Source: a phage. Taken from it: DNA of 64,000 bases. Each line of letters opens with the position of its first letter. Position 1 is the stretch's first letter. Positions 1,715 through 55,415 of this stretch are shown piece by piece. Below the pieces are notes generated by a model. That model was not told the origin of the DNA. It saw nothing but the letters and a program-made list of their open reading frames with translations, and searched no databases. The stretch lies in the sequence record PV730302.1. One strand, 5' to 3'. Both the position numbers and the translations under genes were made by a program.

Positions 1715-2034
1715 CTCTTAGATTTAATTTTATCCAGTTCTTCTTGTATTTGCATTGTAACACATTTTTCTACATGAAGCGCTAGCTCTTCTTTTCGGTC
1801 TTCGGAAGGTGTTCCGAAATCAACCGACACTTTTCCATCTTTCTCAATAACAATATTCATCACATAAACGATGTGAGCAGTGCCATCGGGTAAAGTAAGC
1901 ATAATTTCCTGCTTAACAGAACCCATTGACTTACGGATTATATCTAATGATTTCTCATAATAACGAGGGTCACTAGGACCCTCTTCGGTATCTTTAACAA
2001 AATTATCTAAATCAGATAAATCAGTCATGGTCAC
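1699..2034 (-). CDS. 40: small protein in the gene 40 position (gp40-like, head vertex assembly)
   Basis: 111-aa ORF between uvsX and 41 as in T4; assignment by synteny only; first ATG is at 2028, the track start at 2034 is GTG. Confidence 0.45.
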   Translation of the reverse strand: MTMTDLSDLDNFVKDTEEGPSDPRYYEKSLDIIRKSMGSVKQEIMLTLPDGTAHIVYVMNIVIEKDGKVSVDFGTPSEDRKEELALHVEKCVTMQIQEELDKIKSKRWWKW

Positions 2035-3202
2035 TCACAAAATTCATATTTTCTAAATCGTTTTCGATATCAGCAGCGCTTTGGGTATTTCCGCTTAATT
2101 TAACAGCAACGTTCTTAGAGACACGAGAGTTAATAAGGTCGTTCACTGCATCGTCAACTTCTTTAATAGAATTAATTGCACCAAGCTTATACTTATTCTC
2201 GATTGCTTCACGGAACGGAGCATGTTTAAACAGCGGTCCCCAGAACTCAACACAATCGGTAGCTTTAGCACGCCATGCTTTTTCTTCTTGAACCATTTCG
2301 CCTGTGGTTTCGTCAAGGAATGCACGATTATACCAACCAGCTTTAGGTTTCACAACAAAACCGATATCAGTAGCCATTTCAAGCAATCCACTGAATGGGT
2401 CAATGCCGCCTTCGAAGTTAACGGTGATAGGGAATGTTGATTTCTCTTTAACCGTACGAGATTTCTCTGCCTTCAGTGTGAAGTCGTAACCTGTGAGCTC
2501 GGTACCATCTTTAACCTGACGTTTAGAGATAAAGAACACGGTAGAAGCAGAGTACAGAATACCAGTACCACCACCCATAATCTCTTTAGGATACATTCCA
2601 CCAATTTCCATAGCCGTATGGTTGATTGCTACGCAAGGAATATCCTTGATGGTCAGATAAGGCGTTACGATACGGAACAGAGATTTCAGTGACTTAGCAC
2701 GAGTCATATCACCTACAACTTTCTCGTTCAAAGCATCTTCGGTTTCTTTCTTAGAAGCGGTGTTACCAATGGAGTCGATAAAGATAATAACCTTTTCGCC
2801 ACGAGTAATTTCTTCTAACTGGTTGGTCATATCAACCTTCAGCTGTTCGACTGACTGGATTGGTGTATGAACCACACGTTCCAAATCAACACCCATCGAA
2901 CGGAAATAAGATTCTGAAGCACCAAACTCAGAGTCATAGAACAAACAAATTGCGTCTGGATATTTCTTCATATATGCCGCAACCATGGTAAGTCCAAACA
3001 ACGTTTTAAAGTGTTTAGATGGAGCAGCAAAGATTGTCAAACCTGATTGTAAGCCTGCATTCAACGCACCACCTAATGCAATATTCAGCATAGGGATACG
3101 AGTAGGAACTTCGTCACGACCATTAAACAATTTAGATTTGGTCAGGTCGGCAGTCATTTTAGAAGTAGAAGCTTTAATCAAACGGGATTTTAAATCAGAC
3201 AT
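2021..3202 (-). CDS. uvsX: UvsX recombinase (RecA/Rad51 family)
   Basis: 393 aa; ATG at 3202; high similarity to recalled T4 UvsX over the whole length. Confidence 0.93.
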   Translation of the reverse strand: MSDLKSRLIKASTSKMTADLTKSKLFNGRDEVPTRIPMLNIALGGALNAGLQSGLTIFAAPSKHFKTLFGLTMVAAYMKKYPDAICLFYDSEFGASESYFRSMGVDLERVVHTPIQSVEQLKVDMTNQLEEITRGEKVIIFIDSIGNTASKKETEDALNEKVVGDMTRAKSLKSLFRIVTPYLTIKDIPCVAINHTAMEIGGMYPKEIMGGGTGILYSASTVFFISKRQVKDGTELTGYDFTLKAEKSRTVKEKSTFPITVNFEGGIDPFSGLLEMATDIGFVVKPKAGWYNRAFLDETTGEMVQEEKAWRAKATDCVEFWGPLFKHAPFREAIENKYKLGAINSIKEVDDAVNDLINSRVSKNVAVKLSGNTQSAADIENDLENMNFVSDHD

Positions 3203-3279
3203 TATATTTTTCCATAGGCATCATTATATTTTACTCACGTTTTAAGATAGGGTAATTATATCACTTCACATTTACAGCG

Positions 3280-3411
3280 TTATTTTATTCCTCGGTTGAT
3301 AGCCTTATCGACTATCTTCCGGACTTCTCGTTTCTCGAGCCAGCATAATAATAACAAGGCTCCGAAAGAGAATAATAACAAACCTATAAAAAGCAATAAA
3401 GGACCTAGCAT
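3280..3411 (-). CDS. small hydrophobic peptide (43 aa), putative
   Basis: ATG 3411-3409 with GAGGA SD 8 nt upstream; translation MLGPLLLFIGLLLFSFGALLLLCWLEKREVRKIVDKAINRGIK; below the ORF-track size cutoff. Confidence 0.3.
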   Translation of the reverse strand: MLGPLLLFIGLLLFSFGALLLLCWLEKREVRKIVDKAINRGIK

Positions 3412-4298
3412 ACTACGTCCTCATAACTTGGCATTTCGTGCTCAGAATGGATATGGGCGCCGAAATAAATGAATTCAGCTAGACCAGGATGGAATACTAA
3501 ACCTGGGTTCTCATGATAAATGATATGAGGTCTTGATTTCAGAATCTGATAATATTCAACCTTACTCGGTTTGAATTTAATAATCTCTACATCAGGACGA
3601 TAGTCTTCACGTTTAAACGAATCATTCGGGTCGGTTATATAAAGACGAGCACCTTCAGCCGCAGCTTGGTCTACAACTCTTTCGAATTGATAACACTTAT
3701 CCGAAATACGGAATGGGTGGAAAATACCATCAATTTTAATAGGCGCTAGGCCTTCAGAGTAACGCTCAATTACTGCCGGATTAATTACCTTTTGGTCTAC
3801 AAAAATCTTATCAGAGGACGCACCTCGTGACACCAGGACGTCTTTCTGACATTGATTCAGGACTGTGGTATAAATCGAACGTTCAACTGAGGACACGTCG
3901 GTATCAATAAACTCGTCGATATAATAACGAGGAACTTCAGGGTCCATTGTAATGTTAAAGTTGAATTGTACAGTCTGAGTGCCATCATAACCTGTGATAT
4001 CGGTTACCAATCCTGAGCAGTCATAGTATTCGATTAACGAATCAACAACGAACTCGTTTTCAGACCAAAAATGTTTACGAGTTTCATAAGCATTTTCTTT
4101 ATACCAAAGCGGTACAAAATTCAGTTCAGGAAATAATTCAATGCATTCTTTGATATCGCTCGAATTTCTAGGATAAGCCAGATAATCACCTGGGCAAGCA
4201 CGGTTTAAATGGAGTTGAAAATTACCGTCCTTAAGGACGGCATATTCACCTGTTTCGTAACTACGCATACTGAAAATAGGAACGATAAACAAACTCAT
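3405..4298 (-). CDS. hypothetical protein (297 aa) occupying the T4 beta-glucosyltransferase slot
   Basis: ATG 4298-4296 overlaps the gene 42 stop (ATGA coupling); no similarity to recalled T4 beta-gt; no obvious motifs. Confidence 0.6.
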   Translation of the reverse strand: MSLFIVPIFSMRSYETGEYAVLKDGNFQLHLNRACPGDYLAYPRNSSDIKECIELFPELNFVPLWYKENAYETRKHFWSENEFVVDSLIEYYDCSGLVTDITGYDGTQTVQFNFNITMDPEVPRYYIDEFIDTDVSSVERSIYTTVLNQCQKDVLVSRGASSDKIFVDQKVINPAVIERYSEGLAPIKIDGIFHPFRISDKCYQFERVVDQAAAEGARLYITDPNDSFKREDYRPDVEIIKFKPSKVEYYQILKSRPHIIYHENPGLVFHPGLAEFIYFGAHIHSEHEMPSYEDVVC

Positions 4299-4993
4299 TT
4301 CAGGAATCCTCGAACGTAGTCAAAATCACGTTCAAATACGTGTGCACTAACCATAGTATGGGAATACGTACCCAGACCAACACCACACTGTTCAGCAATA
4401 AAGGCCATCAGTTTACCCTGCAGATAGAAATCCAGCTGCATAACGATAGCACAGTTCTGTGAACGCATATGAGTATGTGCATACAGACGTCCATCACGAA
4501 TATAATATGTCACCGAATCGGTACATGGGTATTCTAAGGATTCGTCAGAATCAAGGAGGGCCTGGTCTTGTTCTTGGAGAATTTGGAACACAACTCGTCT
4601 TGAGTTAGGCTTCTCTTTAAGCTCTTTAAGTAGGGCCGGGAGTTGGGCCACAATTCGAGGTCCATAGAAAGTGTTGAAGTTTGCAGGCAATACGTCACTT
4701 TTCGGCTTATCAATGAACTTAGCAACATTAGGATATTCCTTAAATGCTTCAGCAGCGTCAGTACCACCAGAAATCATAAACTTCCAAAAGGATTCGGCAT
4801 AATCATAGTTGATACGATTAATACGAGGGTCGGTGAATTTATAGGTGCTTGCATCCAGTACTTCTACCGAAGCAGAACCAATTTCATAACAACGGCCGAT
4901 ACGAGAATCAACTGCAAACTGTGGAGCTTCCAGGATTTCTTCGTTCATTTGCTTAAACGCGTTTTCAAAACTAACAGCGGTAATGTGTTTCAT
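4295..4993 (-). CDS. 42: dCMP hydroxymethylase-like enzyme (thymidylate synthase superfamily, gp42 homolog)
   Basis: 232 aa; KPNSRRVVF, YPCTDSVTYYIRD and MRSQN...QLD align with T4 gp42 NPDSRRGIMIY, CTNTVQYLIRD and RSND...RND; the aspartate that T4 uses for cytosine specificity is conserved; SD AAGGTGA. Confidence 0.85.
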   Translation of the reverse strand: MKHITAVSFENAFKQMNEEILEAPQFAVDSRIGRCYEIGSASVEVLDASTYKFTDPRINRINYDYAESFWKFMISGGTDAAEAFKEYPNVAKFIDKPKSDVLPANFNTFYGPRIVAQLPALLKELKEKPNSRRVVFQILQEQDQALLDSDESLEYPCTDSVTYYIRDGRLYAHTHMRSQNCAIVMQLDFYLQGKLMAFIAEQCGVGLGTYSHTMVSAHVFERDFDYVRGFLK

Positions 4994-5526
4994 TTATTCA
5001 CCTTATTTTCAATATATTCATTCAGACGTTTTAATTCTACCATATCGACGTTAAGCAAGTTATTATGGCCGTCGTGATTTAAGATTTTAAACACGTTTTC
5101 AAAACATGTTTCATATTGCCGGATAGTTAGGTTGAACTCATCTTTGGTTAATTTAATAAGGTCATCTTCAAAGTCTTTATCTAATGGATTACGGGTTAAA
5201 ATAACCTCAATAATATTGAATTCTTTTTTGAAATCAATCCAATCTGCTAATTCTACATAAGGGTCCATTTCACCACGAAGGAATCCCGAGTAAACAATAT
5301 TACTAGGATACCCACGGTCTAAGATGTAGACAAAATTAGGGTCTAAAAACTTATACAACGTCTCGACTAAAGCCTTGTCATTATCAGTCCCTAATGAAAT
5401 GCATTTGCCGTTAATCTTTTTAGGGAAATCGATAAGACGATATTTCTTATCAGATAAAAGTGATTCAATTAAAGTAGACTTCCCGGAATTATCCGGGCCG
5501 TCGATAACAATGATTTTTGGTTTCAC
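4990..5526 (-). CDS. P-loop nucleotide kinase, thymidylate-kinase/deoxynucleoside-kinase-like
   Basis: 178 aa; Walker A IDGPDNSGKST and DRG(Y) motif; GTG start overlapping the HAD stop (GTGA); stop overlaps the gene 42 ATG (ATGA). Confidence 0.7.
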   Translation of the reverse strand: MKPKIIVIDGPDNSGKSTLIESLLSDKKYRLIDFPKKINGKCISLGTDNDKALVETLYKFLDPNFVYILDRGYPSNIVYSGFLRGEMDPYVELADWIDFKKEFNIIEVILTRNPLDKDFEDDLIKLTKDEFNLTIRQYETCFENVFKILNHDGHNNLLNVDMVELKRLNEYIENKVNK

Positions 5527-5882
5527 GGATGATATGCCTTATAGGTTTCAAGAGTTCCTTCACGAACCATTTCTTTAAAGTGGTCAGGACGGATTGCTCG
5601 GTCATCGATGATAAAAGTATAACTCGGCTTATGTGTAAGCAGATTGTGATATTTCAATCCAATCTTTTCAAGGTTCTTAACTAATGCAGGAACTACTTCA
5701 ACCAAGATTCGACCCGGGCCGCATGAAGTCATACCACGGGCAGTGAACAAGGTAATCTCGTACCCTTCATCATAAAGCTTATTAATCATGGACACCATTT
5801 CGGTGTCCGGTTTAAAGTTTTCGTAATCACGGTCATCTTGCCAGTGAGTAATGGTATTATCGATATCAAAACACAGATGCAT
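5523..5882 (-). CDS. HAD-superfamily phosphatase (small)
   Basis: Motif I DIDNT near the N-terminus; start taken at the ATG at 5882-5880 overlapping the upstream stop (TAATG) rather than the track start at 5897. Confidence 0.65.
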   Translation of the reverse strand: MHLCFDIDNTITHWQDDRDYENFKPDTEMVSMINKLYDEGYEITLFTARGMTSCGPGRILVEVVPALVKNLEKIGLKYHNLLTHKPSYTFIIDDRAIRPDHFKEMVREGTLETYKAYHP

Positions 5883-7555
5883 TAAATTTTCTTCCATTGT
5901 TTGTGGAGTTCGGTAGAACCTGTAGGTTTATATTTTACACCAGTTTCTTGGTCAAGCAAAACCCACTTATCAGGACAACGAGTGATAATTTGAGCCGTGA
6001 TAGGGTCACGAACTTCATCAACGAATTCACCTGTGATAAGCTTACGCTTACGAGGATGCCGCTTCAGCAGCACACTCAATTGATATAGACCGTTGTAATA
6101 AGCACCCAGAGCTTTCAGAGGGTTATTTTTAAAGTAACCTGCCAATGCCATCCAGATAACAGCAATCCAGAGCTTGTGCTTAAATGTACACATCGGAATA
6201 TCATCTAAAGGCATAACCTTTTCAATATCAACGAATACACGAGTTCCGTTACGAGTTAAGCCACCCCATAGAGGGTCAGAGTTAAATTTGTCATAACCAT
6301 CGATAGAATAAAGCACCTTAGCTTCATCATAAATCGCAGGGCCTTTAGAACTATTACCAAAATAACCACGTGGGTCGATGATTTTAATATTACCTTCGTC
6401 CGACAACATAATATTACTGTAGTGCGGGTCGCCATGAATAAGTTGGTACGGTTCTTTATGTTCAGACAGAATTTCTAAGGCGTGACGAAGAAGTTTTTCC
6501 GGGTCGCCTACCTTAAAGTCATTGACATGGGTAATGCCCTGTGGAGCAAAGCCTTCAATCAATCCAGCAATAGAAGCATTACGAATAAGGACCTTGTCCA
6601 ATACTTCTTTCTTAACATCAGAATACCATTGCTCATCAGATGGATTATCGATGGTTCCACCAAATGAACGTAATGCACTAATGACCTTATAAACCATGAG
6701 GACTTTAGTTTCTTTAGACATAAACCGGTAGGCATCTGCCATGGTGCGTCCAAAGATACGTTCCATTTTAATGAATTCACCTGGAGCAAAGTCTACAATG
6801 CTCGGAACGAATTCAGAATCAATAGAATTGTACCAATTGATTTCTTTAGATTGGATTTCTTTACCTAATTCGTTAGTTGGTACTTTAATAGCCAGATTCT
6901 CAGTGAACTCTAATTTATTAAATTCACGGTTAATTTCAGAATCTTCATGGGCCTTAGCCAGTTTCAATTTGTCACCGACATCAACCACAAAGTCCAGCTT
7001 ACGTTCAGTCAAATGGACCATCGAATCCAGGTTGTCGGCAAGGTCTTCGCCATAATACAGACCGTTAAAACCTGTCCAATTGGCTACTTGATACAAACCA
7101 ACCACACCGCCACCAGTACCAATTTCACGCAAGTATGGTTCTTCAAATGTAAAACGACAGTCAGTCCCATAGGTATAACAGTAGTCGTTATCCCACTCAA
7201 CCTTATAACCTTCAGGAATAATATCACACCAGTTAAACAAGACATTGTGCCCGATGATATCTTCAGCAATGCAATCGATAGCATGAGCTGAACCATTGGC
7301 CACATCTACGTTACGAATAGTGAATTTAGGCTTATCACTATTAATCATATTAATGGATTTAATATAGCCTTTAACGAGGTCGTTAAATTTGCTGTGAATA
7401 ACCAGAATAATTTCATCCGATTGGTTACTATACAAATCGTACAAATGTTTTAATACGGTATGTTGTTTGTAGTTAACCAGTACCTTCGGGATTTCGTTGG
7501 TAATTGGATACAACCGTGAGCCAAGACCCGCGCCTAAAATAACAACCTTTTTCAT
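5882..7555 (-). CDS. bifunctional sugar-1-phosphate nucleotidyltransferase (N-terminal, RmlA-like) / APH-choline-kinase-like phosphotransferase (C-terminal)
   Basis: N-terminal VVILGAGLGSRLYPITNEIPKVL is a classic NTP-transferase signature; C-terminal HGDPHYSN and IIDPRG resemble the APH/ChoK catalytic loop; start at ATG 7555 with GAGGAA SD. Confidence 0.75.
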   Translation of the reverse strand: MKKVVILGAGLGSRLYPITNEIPKVLVNYKQHTVLKHLYDLYSNQSDEIILVIHSKFNDLVKGYIKSINMINSDKPKFTIRNVDVANGSAHAIDCIAEDIIGHNVLFNWCDIIPEGYKVEWDNDYCYTYGTDCRFTFEEPYLREIGTGGGVVGLYQVANWTGFNGLYYGEDLADNLDSMVHLTERKLDFVVDVGDKLKLAKAHEDSEINREFNKLEFTENLAIKVPTNELGKEIQSKEINWYNSIDSEFVPSIVDFAPGEFIKMERIFGRTMADAYRFMSKETKVLMVYKVISALRSFGGTIDNPSDEQWYSDVKKEVLDKVLIRNASIAGLIEGFAPQGITHVNDFKVGDPEKLLRHALEILSEHKEPYQLIHGDPHYSNIMLSDEGNIKIIDPRGYFGNSSKGPAIYDEAKVLYSIDGYDKFNSDPLWGGLTRNGTRVFVDIEKVMPLDDIPMCTFKHKLWIAVIWMALAGYFKNNPLKALGAYYNGLYQLSVLLKRHPRKRKLITGEFVDEVRDPITAQIITRCPDKWVLLDQETGVKYKPTGSTELHKQWKKI

Positions 7556-7615
7556 TATCTGTTCCTCAAGTGAATGTAGGTACATTATACACTATTTTTA
7601 ATAAATTGGTATTGC

Positions 7616-8116
7616 TTAAATCTTATCTTTACCGATTTCAATACACTGTTCTATTGCCGCCGGTACTTTGGTCTTGAGCTTATCGATTTGTTTCTTATAA
7701 TCACGAGCTTTACCGAAGCTCTCAGTTTCGAGCATTTCGTAATAACGAGCTTCATGGATAGAAATCTGTAGATTGATATGGTTTACGCACATCGCATACA
7801 GTTTCTGCTTTTTGTACAAATCATCTTGGCGCTTCATTTCTGCCTGGTGTTTGGCTAGTACCGCTTCACGCTTGGACTCTTGTTCACGTTGGAATTCGAT
7901 TTCTCGTTGAGCATATTTTGCACAGTTATTACCACATTGATTATTAGCTCGGGTATACACAAGTCCAGAACCAGCACGGAATTTCATTTCGCCATCGAAT
8001 TGTTTCTGTTCAGCCGCGATACGAGCTTTACCAACTTCATCAGCCGAAACTGCATCACCATATTGGACCGCGCAACCTGATAGGAGCATACTCATTGCGA
8101 TAATTAACTTTTTCAT
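7616..8116 (-). CDS. putative lipoprotein (166 aa), function unknown
   Basis: Signal peptide with lipobox MLLSGC; ATG 8116 with GAGGA SD; charged coiled-coil-like body. Confidence 0.65.
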   Translation of the reverse strand: MKKLIIAMSMLLSGCAVQYGDAVSADEVGKARIAAEQKQFDGEMKFRAGSGLVYTRANNQCGNNCAKYAQREIEFQREQESKREAVLAKHQAEMKRQDDLYKKQKLYAMCVNHINLQISIHEARYYEMLETESFGKARDYKKQIDKLKTKVPAAIEQCIEIGKDKI

Positions 8117-8123
8117 AATATCC

Positions 8124-8261
8124 TCAATTAAAACAGTTATACTTAATTTGTGCTATAAGAATAATCCATCCGATGATTAGTGTCGGAATCATTGGCGGGA
8201 TTGCCACTGCCCAATAAATGGTAAAGGCAGCCATTATAAGAAATAAAACAATTATTTTCAT
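8124..8261 (-). CDS. small membrane peptide (45 aa), putative (imm.1 position)
   Basis: ATG 8261-8259 overlaps the imm stop (ATGA); translation MKIIVLFLIMAAFTIYWAVAIPPMIPTLIIGWIILIAQIKYNCFN. Confidence 0.4.
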   Translation of the reverse strand: MKIIVLFLIMAAFTIYWAVAIPPMIPTLIIGWIILIAQIKYNCFN

Positions 8262-8494
8262 TGTTTAACAATAATGATTTGTGCGTTTGATTTACGTTCA
8301 GCGACGATAGCCCAGATTAAAGCCACTACCCAACCAATCATCGTCCAGCCTAACAGGAGATTAAGGAAGAAAATTCCTACATTACTACGAGTGCCTCGCA
8401 GAAGAGCCAGAATCCATGGTAAAAAGTAACCGATGAACATAATAACCAGAGAACCGAATCCTAAAACACCAGCACTAACGATTAAAGCTTCCAT
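8258..8494 (-). CDS. imm: superinfection immunity protein Imm-like small membrane protein
   Basis: 78 aa with two predicted TM helices; position between 43 and 42 as in T4; SD GAGGAAA; early promoter upstream. Confidence 0.7.
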   Translation of the reverse strand: MEALIVSAGVLGFGSLVIMFIGYFLPWILALLRGTRSNVGIFFLNLLLGWTMIGWVVALIWAIVAERKSNAQIIIVKQ

Positions 8495-8497
8495 TGT

Positions 8498-8554
8498 AAT
8501 TTCCTCATGTAGTTGATAGGAAGGATACTACCACGTTCCTTGTGGTATGTAAAC
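8498..8554 (-). promoter_or_regulatory. early-promoter-like element upstream of imm
   Basis: Minus-strand GTTTACATACCACAAGGAACGTGGTAGTATCCTTCCTATCAACTAC; -35 GTTTAC, 17-bp spacer, -10 TAGTAT. Confidence 0.55.
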
Positions 8555-8556
8555 AC

Positions 8557-11268
8557 TTAAAAGTCGAACATGTCAAATAATGTTGCTTTTTTCTCGTAGT
8601 CGATTTTAGCAGACTCGGTAAAACCGGTCAGAGGTTTGATAAAGGTCTTTTGGAACAGTACGTTGTAGTCCATCCAACGGAGGACTTGGTCACGAATCTG
8701 AACCGGAAGTTCAATACCTGACGGCCATGCCATACAAGCTTCACCAAACGGGTTGCCTTCTTTAAGTGGCAGTACATATACCTTTTCACCATCAACGATA
8801 CGAGGCATAGTCAAATCACCTGCAGAAGCACGCATGTAAGCTAAGCAACCTTTGATGTGGTATGGACATTTAGAACCCGGGAATCCACCTTCATTATATT
8901 TCTCGATGTTGTTAGCACTGGATACTGCTGCAATGCTTACATAGTTTAGTTCGTTAAATTCCTTATTAAACTGTTTGAAATATTCTTGCAAAGAGGCCTC
9001 GCCTTCCTGAAGCATACGACGGATACATTCTTTCAGAGCTTTCTGAACTGCTTTAGGTGTACTTGATTTCTGGGTTTCGAGACCCATGATTTTCAAGTGC
9101 GGTTCGGCATAACGAGTACCTTCCATGTCCCAAACGTTCAGTGCATAACGTTTCTTGCCTGTCCAGAATCCACCAAGACCTTTAGAACCAAGTGGAGGAC
9201 CTGCGATAGCTTCTCGGTCCATGAACATCAAGTGTTGTTTGTTGTTCATGTACTCGCACATCTCACGGAAGCCTGCATCAATAGCTGGTTCCATACGTTC
9301 ACGTGCAAATTTATCTAAGAAGTCGACCCAATGGTTAGTATCACGGAATTTATCTTCGCCTACTTTATTGATGATTGCATCTGCCTTAACATAAATGGAG
9401 TCAGTATCACCATAGAGCACGAACTTCTGATTTTCAGTCTTACACACGCTATTCAGATATTCGTTAACCTTACGTTCAATCCATTGGAGGGCCATTTGAC
9501 CAAACAGTGTGATTGCAGTTGCGTTCCTGAGGTCGTAATAACGGAACCATACGTTACCAAGTGCACCATAAAGGGAGTTGATAAGCAACTTACGGTTAAT
9601 CTGAGCAGTCATACCTGCAACTTCGGTACGTTCAGCTCTGAACAACATTTCTCTTAAAGAAGGTGCTGACAGCGTTTTAATCTTGGCTTTGATTTCGTCA
9701 GAGAAGTCAAAACGATAATCGATATCCAGTGGACTATCAGCCGAGAGATTAGGATTTTCTAATGCTTCTTTAATTAACTCACCATTACGTTGAGCTGCAA
9801 GCATATAACCTTTATGTTCTTTACGTTGTAAGAACACCTTAGTGATTTCTGTAGGAATCACACCATCGCGGTCTTTATAGTACATCATGCCGTTAGGAGA
9901 GCAACTGTAGACGTCGCTAGGACGCGGAGCTGTTCCGGCAATATATTCATGTATCGGTGCGTTAGCGAATGTCCCTGCGATGGTCTCTGGGCTTATATTC
10001 ACTTGTCGAATGATACTCGGGTACAGAGATGTAAGGTCGAAACTCATTACGTATTTGTAAGCGTTAGGAATCGGTTCCTTAACGAAAGCGCCAGGATAAG
10101 GTTGGACCACGTGCGAACGAGCTTGTGGAATTACCTTGCCTTGCTCTTTAAGGCTATTAAAGATAATAGCGTCCCAAGTCTTAATTGGACTAAACACCGA
10201 CTGAATCTGCATCTTAGCATAATAACCCATGTCCAAACTCAGAAGAATGAACTGGCGTTTCATATCAATCTGCACTACACGATATACGTCGATAATGTTA
10301 TAGGAAATATATCGTTGGTGGTTCGTCTCACGTAACTTGGAGATTGGACCATCGTATTTCAACTTACCTACTTTCAATTCATATTCAGAAACATAATCCA
10401 GAGAATAAGAAGGCTGGTTGGTGAAGCTGAATTTTTTATAGAGGTCGATATAATCCAGAACAGAGATGCCGAACAAAGTAATGATTTCACGAGCACCGTA
10501 CATGTTCTCGATAACTTTAACACGAGTTTTACGATGTGGGCTTAATCGCTTAGCAGTGTTCTCACCGAACAGATTTTTCAGACGGTTATAAACGTACGGC
10601 ACGTCAAATGATTCAACGTTCCATCCAGTCAAAATCACAGGAGTTTTCTGTTGCCAGAAATTCAAGTACTCAAGCATCATTTCTTCTTCAGAATTAAATG
10701 GAAGATAAACGATTTTGTCAATGATTTCCTGTGGAACTTCGTCACCACCTTCGTCTTGGAGTTTCTCAGCGATTTTAATCGACCACTCTTCAACAGTACC
10801 ATAAGGCGAAACTAAAAGGTCGAATACATAGAATTTATCGTCAATCGAGTCGTAGTGGGTAATGGCATCGATAGGATGTTTAGCCTGAGCTGGTTCAGGG
10901 AATCCATCAGGAGATGTTACCTCGATGTCGAAGTTAGCAATACGAATCTTAGAAGAATCATATTTGATTTCTTTACGATAGGTATCAGACAAATAGGCTA
11001 ATTTATAGTCGTCCATACCCAGGGCTTCGAGGCCCATATCATCCATACGTTTCATCCATTGGGATGCATCACGCATAGAGTCGAATTCTTTCTTAACACA
11101 ACCCTTACCATAGATATCAATGTATTTTACGGCTTGCTCTGGATTAGCATGCATAAACATTGTAGGCTTGTATGGAACTTCACGACTACGTTCGTTACCA
11201 TTTTTATCGATGTAACGTTCGAGAATATTATCACCGATTTGTTCGACTGTCAAATAGAATTCTTGCAT
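8557..11268 (-). CDS. 43: DNA polymerase gp43 (family B)
   Basis: Near-colinear with recalled T4 and especially RB69 gp43; start taken at in-frame ATG 11268 (MQEFYLTVEQ, matching T4 MKEFYISIET) with AGGAAA SD, not the longer track ORF to 11328. Confidence 0.96.
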   Translation of the reverse strand: MQEFYLTVEQIGDNILERYIDKNGNERSREVPYKPTMFMHANPEQAVKYIDIYGKGCVKKEFDSMRDASQWMKRMDDMGLEALGMDDYKLAYLSDTYRKEIKYDSSKIRIANFDIEVTSPDGFPEPAQAKHPIDAITHYDSIDDKFYVFDLLVSPYGTVEEWSIKIAEKLQDEGGDEVPQEIIDKIVYLPFNSEEEMMLEYLNFWQQKTPVILTGWNVESFDVPYVYNRLKNLFGENTAKRLSPHRKTRVKVIENMYGAREIITLFGISVLDYIDLYKKFSFTNQPSYSLDYVSEYELKVGKLKYDGPISKLRETNHQRYISYNIIDVYRVVQIDMKRQFILLSLDMGYYAKMQIQSVFSPIKTWDAIIFNSLKEQGKVIPQARSHVVQPYPGAFVKEPIPNAYKYVMSFDLTSLYPSIIRQVNISPETIAGTFANAPIHEYIAGTAPRPSDVYSCSPNGMMYYKDRDGVIPTEITKVFLQRKEHKGYMLAAQRNGELIKEALENPNLSADSPLDIDYRFDFSDEIKAKIKTLSAPSLREMLFRAERTEVAGMTAQINRKLLINSLYGALGNVWFRYYDLRNATAITLFGQMALQWIERKVNEYLNSVCKTENQKFVLYGDTDSIYVKADAIINKVGEDKFRDTNHWVDFLDKFARERMEPAIDAGFREMCEYMNNKQHLMFMDREAIAGPPLGSKGLGGFWTGKKRYALNVWDMEGTRYAEPHLKIMGLETQKSSTPKAVQKALKECIRRMLQEGEASLQEYFKQFNKEFNELNYVSIAAVSSANNIEKYNEGGFPGSKCPYHIKGCLAYMRASAGDLTMPRIVDGEKVYVLPLKEGNPFGEACMAWPSGIELPVQIRDQVLRWMDYNVLFQKTFIKPLTGFTESAKIDYEKKATLFDMFDF

Positions 11269-11321
11269 TTCATTTCCTTTATAGACGAGTGATTGTCTTT
11301 TGTTTGTTGATGAATTATTAT

Positions 11322-11348
11322 ACTCCAAAAAGGGACCGAAGTCCCTTT
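11322..11348 (-). terminator. terminator-like hairpin upstream of gene 43
   Basis: AAAGGGAC-TTCG-GTCCCTTT followed by a 4-nt T-run on the minus strand. Confidence 0.45.
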
Positions 11349-15172: not shown

Positions 15173-15234
15173 AATATTTTCTCTCATTTGGTTGGTAGAT
15201 GTATTATAAATCAATATTTTAAAGCACTTAACGT

Positions 15235-47805: not shown

Positions 47806-48155
47806 GATTTACATTCCTTAATAAAGGTTTCAAGGTCATTACGTTTAGTTTGTTTTACATACTCATTATAATTAGCCATAGCTAAAGCATATCTCTTTTT
47901 ACGTGGCTTGTTTATTTTATTAGTTTGGGCAATATCAAAGACCCATGGGATAAAAAATCCTATTAAAGCCGGAACCCAAATCCATGCAAGGCTCATATCT
48001 TCAAACGGATGGCGAGGCATACCATTAATAATCCCACCGACAAGAAATCCAATTATCCCTGCAGTCATACTAGTAGCAATGCCGAGGAATAAGGAAATAG
48101 CTATATCATAATCTGCTAATGCGTAACCAGGGTCGGTTTTACTAGGCTTATGCAT
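47802..48155 (-). CDS. membrane protein (117 aa)
   Basis: Start at ATG 48155 with AGAGG SD; two TM helices; C-terminus FIKECKS. Confidence 0.5.
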   Translation of the reverse strand: MHKPSKTDPGYALADYDIAISLFLGIATSMTAGIIGFLVGGIINGMPRHPFEDMSLAWIWVPALIGFFIPWVFDIAQTNKINKPRKKRYALAMANYNEYVKQTKRNDLETFIKECKS

Positions 48156-54653: not shown

Positions 54654-54661
<8 letters not shown>

Positions 54662-55415
54662 TTTTATTTCCTAATAATTTATCAATAGTAGTGTATAGTT
54701 CAGAAAGAGTGCCGTTATTTTCAACAACAACGTCACCAGGTAAAATTGGTAGACCCGCTTCAGTGATGTGCGAGTCTTGTACTTGACCGGTTTCAGAGCG
54801 AACTACATGAATAATCGTAGCACCCATCGCTCTGAGCGAATCAATTTCGTGTGTTTGACGAACATCAGGTACGACATAGTATTTCGCGTCAGAGTATATT
54901 TTATCAAAATAGTCTAAAGCGAACAACTTAACCCAATACATCTTATCAAATTGGTTAACAATAATATCAGTCCCAAGGGTCTGCATGAGACGACGTACTG
55001 ACCAATTGTTATTTTTATTTATTACTTCAAACAGTTGGTCTTTTGTTTCTTCAGACAGATACTGGACTGGGGTAAGACCATAATGATATGCGGTACGAAC
55101 ATCCATTCCTGGAATAGGAAGGATATTATTCAGTTTGACAATAGCATTTTCAAAGATATCAATAACGTCATATGGTTTTAAAGGAATGATTTCTTCACGG
55201 TCGTAACCGATACCTTCAAAACAGTTGAAATCCAGTTTAGGCATATAACTACGGTCGAATACAGGGTCATCAGAGATGTATTCATAGGCTTCAGCCAGAT
55301 ACTTTTTAATAGGACCTGCGAGCTGAAATTTTACCGAATCCATATTTTCGATTACATAGTTAGCAACGGTATCCTTACCGCTACGTTTGATTCCTACAAT
55401 TGATATTAGTTTCAT
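54654..55415 (-). CDS. 1: deoxynucleoside monophosphate kinase gp1
   Basis: 253 aa; P-loop GIKRSGKDT and WSVRRLMQTLGTDIIVNQFDKMYWVKLFALDY blocks match recalled T4 gp1. Confidence 0.93.

Follow-up and report, generated by a model that had tools for sequence, protein, structure and literature searches.

What a T4-type coliphage makes with three genes that T4 itself lacks, kept beside an enzyme for modifying dCMP, is the question raised by five minus-strand genes at 3405-7555 of a 64,000-nucleotide stretch of phage DNA (sequence record PV730302.1; the whole stretch is referred to below as the window). A preliminary description of the sequence had proposed that these genes form a phage-encoded supply line for a nucleoside diphosphate sugar other than UDP-glucose, used to decorate a modified cytosine, and had pointed to the arabinose of RB69-like phages. 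Both suggestions proved sound, with two of the encoded proteins matching the AfhE and AfhF enzymes of phage HY126 and all five being homologous to proteins of the RB69 cluster for arabinosyl-5-hydroxycytosine (ara-5hoC). The cassette is very probably the Dhakavirus version of the ara-5hoC DNA hypermodification pathway.

The virion DNA of RB69 and of the Acinetobacter phage DLP3 has been shown to contain mono- to tri-arabinosylated 5-hydroxycytosine (5hoC) with the ether directly on C5 (Lee et al., PMC13326640), and arabosylated 5hoC virion DNA has also been reported in a further study (PMC12923530). The RB69 module was put forward as a source of UDP-arabinose by Thomas et al. (2018; PMC6024577) and Dhakaviruses are named among the genera that carry the cluster (PMC13326640). 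The pathway, suggested in 2018 and elucidated in 2025-2026, is already published with Dhakaviruses included, and nothing described here is new in kind.

The window comes from a JS98/IME341-like Dhakavirus. The region 3200-8600 shares 96-98% DNA identity with phages IME341 (Straboviridae, Tevenvirinae, Dhakavirus), LQ5, QL01, WG01 and Bp7, and 93% with JS98 and JS10. The five genes are flanked by gene 43 (8557-11328) and uvsX (2021-3202) and encode, in the order of transcription, a fusion protein of 557 amino acids, a HAD phosphatase of 119, a kinase of 178, a thymidylate synthase (ThyA) homolog of 232 and a further protein of 297. The chained arrangement, motifs and overlaps quoted for them in the preliminary description were all found in the sequence. 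T4 is indeed without the fusion, HAD and kinase genes, although the T4 gene order assumed for that comparison, with imm.1 between 42 and imm, is in fact 42 - imm - imm.1 - 43. Homologs of all five proteins, matching over the full length, are present in the uvsX-gene 43 gene sets of RB69, HY126, 92A1 and DLP3; the kinase gives E-values between about 1e-26 and 1e-34, and the remaining four proteins give 1e-44 or lower. The annotation of Bas47 lists this gene set too. The kinase gene lies between the HAD and synthase genes here and after the transferase gene in RB69, HY126, Bas47, 92A1 and DLP3. Neighbouring stop and start codons overlap at 5880-5884 (TAATG), 5523-5526 (GTGA), 4990-4993 (ATGA) and 4295-4298 (ATGA), and a fifth overlap (ATGCTAG, 3405-3411) connects the 297-residue gene to an open reading frame (ORF) of 43 codons. 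It had been expected from these overlaps that the proteins are made as a stoichiometric unit. The overlaps fit co-expression, but because stop/start overlaps are commonplace in this genome (gp41, gp40 and uvsX also overlap) they are no special evidence for it.

Evidence as to the acceptor base comes from the ThyA homolog (4295-4993, minus strand). This protein matches the structures 9iqu, 9iqc and 9ir2 with E-values of about 1e-125, compared with 4.7e-6 for T4 gp42 (1b49). It is approximately 79% identical to RB69 gp48 and to the HY126 enzyme, 81% to the 92A1 homolog and 71% to DLP3 gp80, whereas identity to T4 gp42 is 25% over 159 residues (E 2e-9). When aligned to E. coli ThyA it has Asn at D169, Asp at N177 and Glu at L143 and keeps the catalytic Cys; in the same alignment T4 gp42 keeps Asp at the D169 position. 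The D169N exchange has been shown to be diagnostic of 5-hydroxy-dCMP synthases and was validated on nine diverse homologs, and RB69 gp48 binds flavin and makes 5-hydroxy-dCMP using O2 (PMC13326640). The retention of the cytosine-specifying aspartate, at N177, had been noted correctly. The conclusion drawn from it, a gp42-like hydroxymethylase acting to provide 5-hydroxymethylcytosine (hmC), does not agree with these data, as neither close gp42 homology nor an Asp at D169 was found, and the protein is unlikely to be a hydroxymethylase. Because of D169N and the greater closeness to 5-hydroxy-dCMP synthases than to gp42, it is predicted to be a flavin/O2-dependent 5-hydroxy-dCMP synthase, and 5hoC, not hmC, is most likely the acceptor. 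The chemistry would differ accordingly from that of T4 gp42 and the alpha- and beta-glucosyltransferases (alpha-gt, beta-gt), in which a hydroxymethyl group is introduced via folate; in ara-5hoC a hydroxyl group is introduced via flavin and O2 and the ether is made directly to the ring. T4 glucosylation also draws its donor, UDP-glucose, from the host, whereas here the donor would be made by the phage.

The sugar donor is addressed by the fusion and the HAD phosphatase. The AfhE-like fusion (5882-7555, minus strand) has an N-terminal sugar-1-phosphate nucleotidyltransferase domain (motif GAGLGSRLYPIT..IPKVL) and a C-terminal APH-like kinase domain (motifs IHGDPHYSN and IIDPRGYFG), and Pfam recognises both in the one ORF (NTP_transferase 2.6e-8, APH 9e-6), as the preliminary description had supposed. 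Over its full length the protein is 47% identical to the 92A1 homolog, 44% to DLP3 gp82, 43% to the HY126 protein and 41-43% to RB69 ORF052c/053c, and in an alignment across genera the GxGxxxRL..PK and HGDxxxxN / IDPRG motifs are invariant. The AfhF-like HAD phosphatase (5523-5882, minus strand) has DIDNT as motif I followed by TARG, K and IIDD. Its identification as a small HAD enzyme, weak in Pfam (0.025), is borne out by matches to 9iqw (E 1.6e-51) and 1xpj (E 3.5e-12) and by 62-67% identity to RB69 gp51, DLP3 gp81 and the HY126 (62%) and 92A1 homologs. The TAATG junction between the two genes is kept in HY126, RB69 and DLP3, which speaks for translational coupling of the two enzymes of the donor arm. 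According to Lee et al. (PMC13326640, citing He et al., 2026), HY126 AfhE acts both as an arabinose-5-phosphate kinase and as a UDP-arabinose pyrophosphorylase, and AfhF is a Mg-dependent phosphatase that converts arabinose-1,5-bisphosphate to arabinose-1-phosphate. By homology the fusion is predicted to be an arabinose-5-phosphate 1-kinase and UDP-arabinofuranose pyrophosphorylase, and the HAD protein an arabinose-1,5-bisphosphate 5-phosphatase yielding arabinofuranose-1-phosphate. The order of steps suggested earlier, in which the phosphatase came first, the kinase then acted on a free sugar and the nucleotidyltransferase followed, departs from the published order as Lee et al. relate it, which runs from the kinase acting on arabinose-5-phosphate through the HAD enzyme to uridylyl transfer. 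Start codons further upstream were considered for both genes. A fusion start at 7585, which gives the longest ORF, was rejected on the position of the ribosome-binding site, the start at 7555 being preceded by GAGG and the ATG at 7585 lying in a TATAAT box; an ATG at 5897 for the HAD gene was rejected on the same ground and on the conserved TAATG junction, because of which the start is placed at 5882.

The two enzyme superfamilies joined in the fusion are also those of the AmgK/MurU and LicA/LicC pairs. In the PDB the fusion gives weak sequence matches to nucleotidyltransferases of the RmlA/LicC type, LicC itself among them (1jyk, E 9e-4), and MurU is among the closest structures for the N-terminal domains of the RB69 and DLP3 fusions (PMC13326640). 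The resemblance to these pairs goes no further than the superfamily (E 1e-3 to 1e-4). The pairs consist of a kinase and a nucleotidyltransferase, whereas in the window both activities reside in one polypeptide with the nucleotidyltransferase N-terminal. Moreover, the substrate of the ara-5hoC kinase is reported to be a sugar 5-phosphate already, so that an additional HAD step is needed, unlike in AmgK/MurU and LicA/LicC. Distant full-length fusion homologs of 27-28% identity were observed in the jumbo phages PAU of Sphingomonas (155467-157197) and D486 of Vibrio (168915-170222), which are outside the Straboviridae. In PAU an arabinose-5-phosphate isomerase gene lies two genes away. No kinase, synthase, HAD or compact transferase was detectable within 12 kb of either homolog, which is weak evidence at such a distance.

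The position occupied in T4 by beta-gt had been described as holding an unrelated orphan ORF. This 297-residue protein (3405-4298, minus strand) has no Pfam match, but it is a compact GT-B glycosyltransferase, 67% identical to a 299-residue HY126 protein and 65-69% to the halves of RB69 gp46:47, with 45-69% identity across homologs. A compact GT-B transferase syntenic with the synthase, a mark of the ara-5hoC cluster, is thus present. On this basis the protein is predicted to be an arabinosyltransferase acting on the 5-hydroxyl of cytosine, and the first and only one of this phage.

Among the closest known systems, as far as it is described by Lee et al. (PMC13326640), is the Afh cluster of HY126 (He et al., Nat Chem Biol 2026; PDB 9iqc/9iqu/9ir2, 9iqw, 9iqz), a phage with RB69-like gene order and proteins 97-100% identical to those of RB69. 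Five homologous proteins, their domain architecture and catalytic motifs and the TAATG junction are shared with the window. The HY126 kinase gene follows the transferase gene beside uvsX, whereas that of the window lies between the HAD and synthase genes. HY126 has in addition an arabinose-5-phosphate isomerase, a U32-peptidase-like gene and a crystallised 366-residue glycosyltransferase (9iqz); no homolog of any of these three is present in the window or in IME341. The gp45-gp55 module of RB69 (PMC6024577, PMC13326640) occupies the same uvsX-gene 43 site and encodes all five of the core proteins. In addition, RB69 possesses gp50, the isomerase gp55 and, besides gp46:47, a second transferase, gp3, and its DNA is mono- and di-arabinosylated, whereas the window has one transferase and is without an isomerase. 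DLP3 (gp76-gp83) shares the fusion, HAD phosphatase, synthase, compact transferase and Tmk-like kinase (44-71% identity) and differs in having two further transferases and tri-arabinosyl-5hoC. The closest precedent for the mono-arabinosylation predicted below is the Shewanella phage Thanatos, known to us from its description in the literature, which is reported to be mono-arabosylated and to have a single syntenic transferase.

The reduced gene set was also sought in the assembled, complete genome of IME341, 96% identical to the window in the cassette region, by tblastn with RB69, HY126, DLP3, 92A1 and T4 proteins (E<0.1). No match to an arabinose-5-phosphate isomerase was found at this threshold in the window or in IME341, and none in IME341 to the second and third transferases (RB69 gp3, DLP3 gp76/77), to the U32-peptidase-like protein or to T4 beta-gt. 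Nor did a glycosyltransferase domain turn up when ten large IME341 proteins annotated as hypothetical were scanned against Pfam, a scan that is insensitive as the first transferase likewise has no Pfam match. Of the records in a phage collection, 369 have the fusion, 276 the isomerase and 212 the gp3-type transferase. None of the isomerase matches came from the fusion-carrying Klebsiella (Marfa-like) or Proteus/Providencia groups, and the gp3-type transferase was limited to Mosigvirus-type Escherichia/Shigella phages and Acinetobacter phages. E. coli KdsD makes arabinose-5-phosphate constitutively for Kdo synthesis and GutQ provides a second source. Because the host makes this compound, the isomerase looks like an accessory and not a core feature of the cluster, and the present lineage is predicted to depend on KdsD/GutQ. 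Since the number of transferases equals the number of arabinose residues in Thanatos (one), RB69 (two) and DLP3 (three), this lineage is further predicted, by analogy, to carry mono-arabinosyl-5hoC only.

A pathway may be drawn in which all enzymatic activities are taken from published homologs, while the homology, domain architecture, catalytic motifs, folds, overlaps and lack of an isomerase and second transferase were observed here. In the nucleotide arm the ThyA homolog would hydroxylate dCMP at C5 with flavin and O2; the 5-hydroxy-dCMP would be raised to the triphosphate by the gp1 deoxynucleoside monophosphate kinase, possibly together with the Tmk-like kinase, and by host nucleoside diphosphate kinase, and 5-hydroxy-dCTP would be incorporated by the phage polymerase instead of dCTP. 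In the donor arm D-arabinose-5-phosphate from host KdsD/GutQ would be phosphorylated at C1 by the C-terminal domain of the fusion, the 5-phosphate would be taken off by the HAD enzyme, and the N-terminal domain of the fusion would join arabinofuranose-1-phosphate and UTP to give UDP-arabinofuranose. The GT-B enzyme would finally attach arabinose to the 5-hydroxyl, a single transferase giving mono-arabinosyl-5hoC. The sugar count, the dependence on host arabinose-5-phosphate and the substrate suggested below for the Tmk-like kinase are proposals of the present analysis.

The Tmk-like kinase (4990-5526, minus strand, with a GTG start) is weak in Pfam. It has the P-loop GPDNSGKST, the motif DRGYPSN, which corresponds to DR(Y/G)xxS, and a three-dimensional fold like that of thymidylate kinase, a pyrimidine nucleotide kinase, and it is 36-38% identical to its RB69, HY126 (36%), 92A1 and DLP3 homologs. 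The earlier identification as a Tmk-like P-loop kinase thus stands, whereas the part given to it in donor synthesis does not: in the Rhizobium phage RL38J1, which has hexosyl-5hoC and no arabinose genes, a Tmk-like kinase adjoins the first transferase and the synthase (PMC13326640, Table 1). Conversely, the distant fusion homologs of PAU and D486 have neither a kinase nor a synthase detectable in their neighbourhood. The nucleotide-kinase fold and these gene contexts place the protein probably in the nucleotide arm and not in the sugar-donor arm. The phage collection does not discriminate between these roles, as the kinase (344 records) and the fusion are near co-extensive in the Straboviridae. 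A modified dCMP, either 5-hydroxy-dCMP or an arabinosylated form, is most likely the substrate. A gp1-type kinase already phosphorylates 5-hydroxy-dCMP: RB69 gp159 converts this nucleotide to the diphosphate (PMC13326640). The window encodes such an enzyme outside the cassette (54657-55415, minus strand), 98% identical to IME341 gp129, 'deoxynucleoside monophosphate kinase'.

Several points weigh against the ara-5hoC assignment or parts of it. Our literature search found no nucleoside chemistry for any Dhakavirus, and those experimentally studied coliphages that could be placed (RB69, Bas47/AlbertHofmann and NP) are Mosigviruses. The fusion and the kinase are only 42-47% and 36-38% identical to characterised or nearly characterised homologs, so sugar specificity could differ. 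The activities of AfhE and AfhF are cited second-hand, through Lee et al. (PMC13326640), who did not reconstitute the first arabosyl transfer on 5hoC-DNA in vitro. TH1_063 of Thanatos, a 300-residue GT-B-like protein in the homolog class of the 297-residue protein, has been reported to be a UDP-xylose pyrophosphorylase in vitro (PMC12838424), an activity that conflicts with the role of transferase assigned by homology and fold. It is also possible that a cryptic second transferase is encoded.

The stage at which the sugar is added may be viewed differently. Within the conserved trio of synthase, acidic GT-B enzyme and Tmk-like kinase, the transferase might arabinosylate the mononucleotide, with the kinase phosphorylating arabinosyl-5-hydroxy-dCMP and the polymerase incorporating a glycosylated dCTP analogue; a dedicated kinase would then be required as the gp1 kinase would be unable to handle so bulky a nucleotide. 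Such a pre-replicative route would explain why a second pyrimidine-nucleotide kinase is kept beside these genes, even in RL38J1, and why single transferases showed no activity on 5hoC-DNA in the work of Lee et al. It would also explain why their own data do not separate transfer at the mononucleotide level from post-replicative transfer (PMC13326640), and it would account for the acidity of the first-transferase family (median isoelectric point 5.3; 4.8 with a net charge of -19 for the protein in the window), a proxy for DNA binding that is suggestive only, since T4 alpha-gt is also mildly acidic. Transfer before replication is nevertheless considered unlikely.

If transfer to 5hoC in DNA is retained, the sugar itself may still be questioned. 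The isomerase-less clade (Dhakavirus, Marfa-like Klebsiella phages and the Proteus/Providencia relatives) could use the same enzymology to activate another sugar for 5hoC, for example a different pentose-5-phosphate. Members of this clade share 70-80% identity in the fusion, against only 42-47% to isomerase-carrying lineages, the whole clade is without a phage arabinose-5-phosphate isomerase, and the literature search found no chemistry for any of its members. On the other hand, an isomerase is dispensable where host KdsD/GutQ supply arabinose-5-phosphate; lineages with and without an isomerase have approximately 170 invariant fusion positions in common, among them the two catalytic motifs and the greater part of the kinase core; and the HAD protein and the transferase are 62-69% identical to proteins of arabinose systems. 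A sugar other than arabinose therefore appears distinctly improbable.

Less still speaks for a true dCMP hydroxymethylase accompanied by genes for the salvage of a free sugar or amino-alcohol, in which phosphatase, kinase and nucleotidyltransferase would act in turn to make a donor for the decoration of hmC. The cytosine-specifying Asp (N177D) and the acidic residue at L143 are found as in T4 gp42, RB69 DNA was first reported to contain arabinosyl-hmC (PMC6024577), and pairs of the AmgK/MurU type work on free sugars. That assignment for RB69 has since been revised, the sugar being linked by an ether through 5-hydroxycytosine, and the D169N exchange, the contrast between 79% identity to characterised hydroxylases and 25% to gp42, and a published step order that, as cited by Lee et al., starts at arabinose-5-phosphate and not at a free sugar make this explanation highly improbable. 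That the cassette is unrelated to DNA and serves host surface glycan modification or, as LicA/LicC do, CDP-choline/ethanolamine synthesis is barely credible, as the resemblance of the fusion in fold to APH/choline kinases and to LicC, and database names on relatives, 'capsule biosynthesis protein' and 'phosphoheptose isomerase' among them, are to be set against the location of the genes between uvsX and gene 43, their overlap with the modified-dCMP synthase gene, the presence of the same gene set in all phages for which ara-5hoC DNA has been demonstrated, and the origin of those names in automatic transfer without functional testing.

Three small minus-strand ORFs border the cassette. One of 166 codons (7616-8116; PHROG 1754), flanked by the imm region and the fusion gene, has a lipoprotein signal (MKKLIIAMSMLLSGC) and occupies the slot of the arabinose-5-phosphate isomerase in RB69, HY126, 92A1 and DLP3. 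A membrane-like ORF of 45 codons (8124-8261) is 58% identical to RB69 ORF054c, annotated 'similar to T4 42-imm intercistronic region'. The third (3280-3411) is the strongly hydrophobic 43-codon ORF already mentioned, with an ATG that overlaps the transferase stop codon. It is a clean presence/absence polymorphism of about 125 bp, present in the window and in IME341, where it is not annotated in the RefSeq record, and precisely missing from QL01. Records of the JS98 type align in one piece with 100% coverage; the gap is likely also present in LQ5, WG01 and Bp7, whose matches are split into two pieces with 98% coverage. A scan for sigma-70 promoters and terminators over 3000-8700 gave no signal better than shuffled sequences and none above chance inside the cassette; the TATAAT box mentioned above lies at 7584-7589, just upstream of the fusion start. 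A MotA-box-like pattern (TGCTTYA, 10-14 nucleotides, TANNNT) occurs at 12 sites in the window against 2.7 expected, mostly on the minus strand (for example 15203-15226 and 47865-47889), with none within 3000-8600.

The names under which these proteins are deposited for IME341 (NC_055742.1) and its relatives are misleading. 'RNA polymerase binding protein' stands for the GT-B transferase, 'phosphoheptose isomerase' (PHROG 1238) or 'capsule biosynthesis protein' for the HAD protein, and 'thymidylate synthase' or 'dCMP hydroxymethylase' for the 5-hydroxy-dCMP synthase. The RefSeq names 'RNA polymerase binding protein', 'phosphoheptose isomerase' and 'thymidylate synthase' should be corrected. DNA containing ara-5hoC alters the fate of a phage in the face of restriction, CRISPR and type IV defence, and to know which therapeutic and model coliphages carry it is of practical use. 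The JS98-like Dhakaviruses appear to have a stripped-down, five-gene version of the pathway, with no phage isomerase, no U32-like gene and one transferase, and this lineage would be a convenient minimal system in which to study the role of the Tmk-like kinase.

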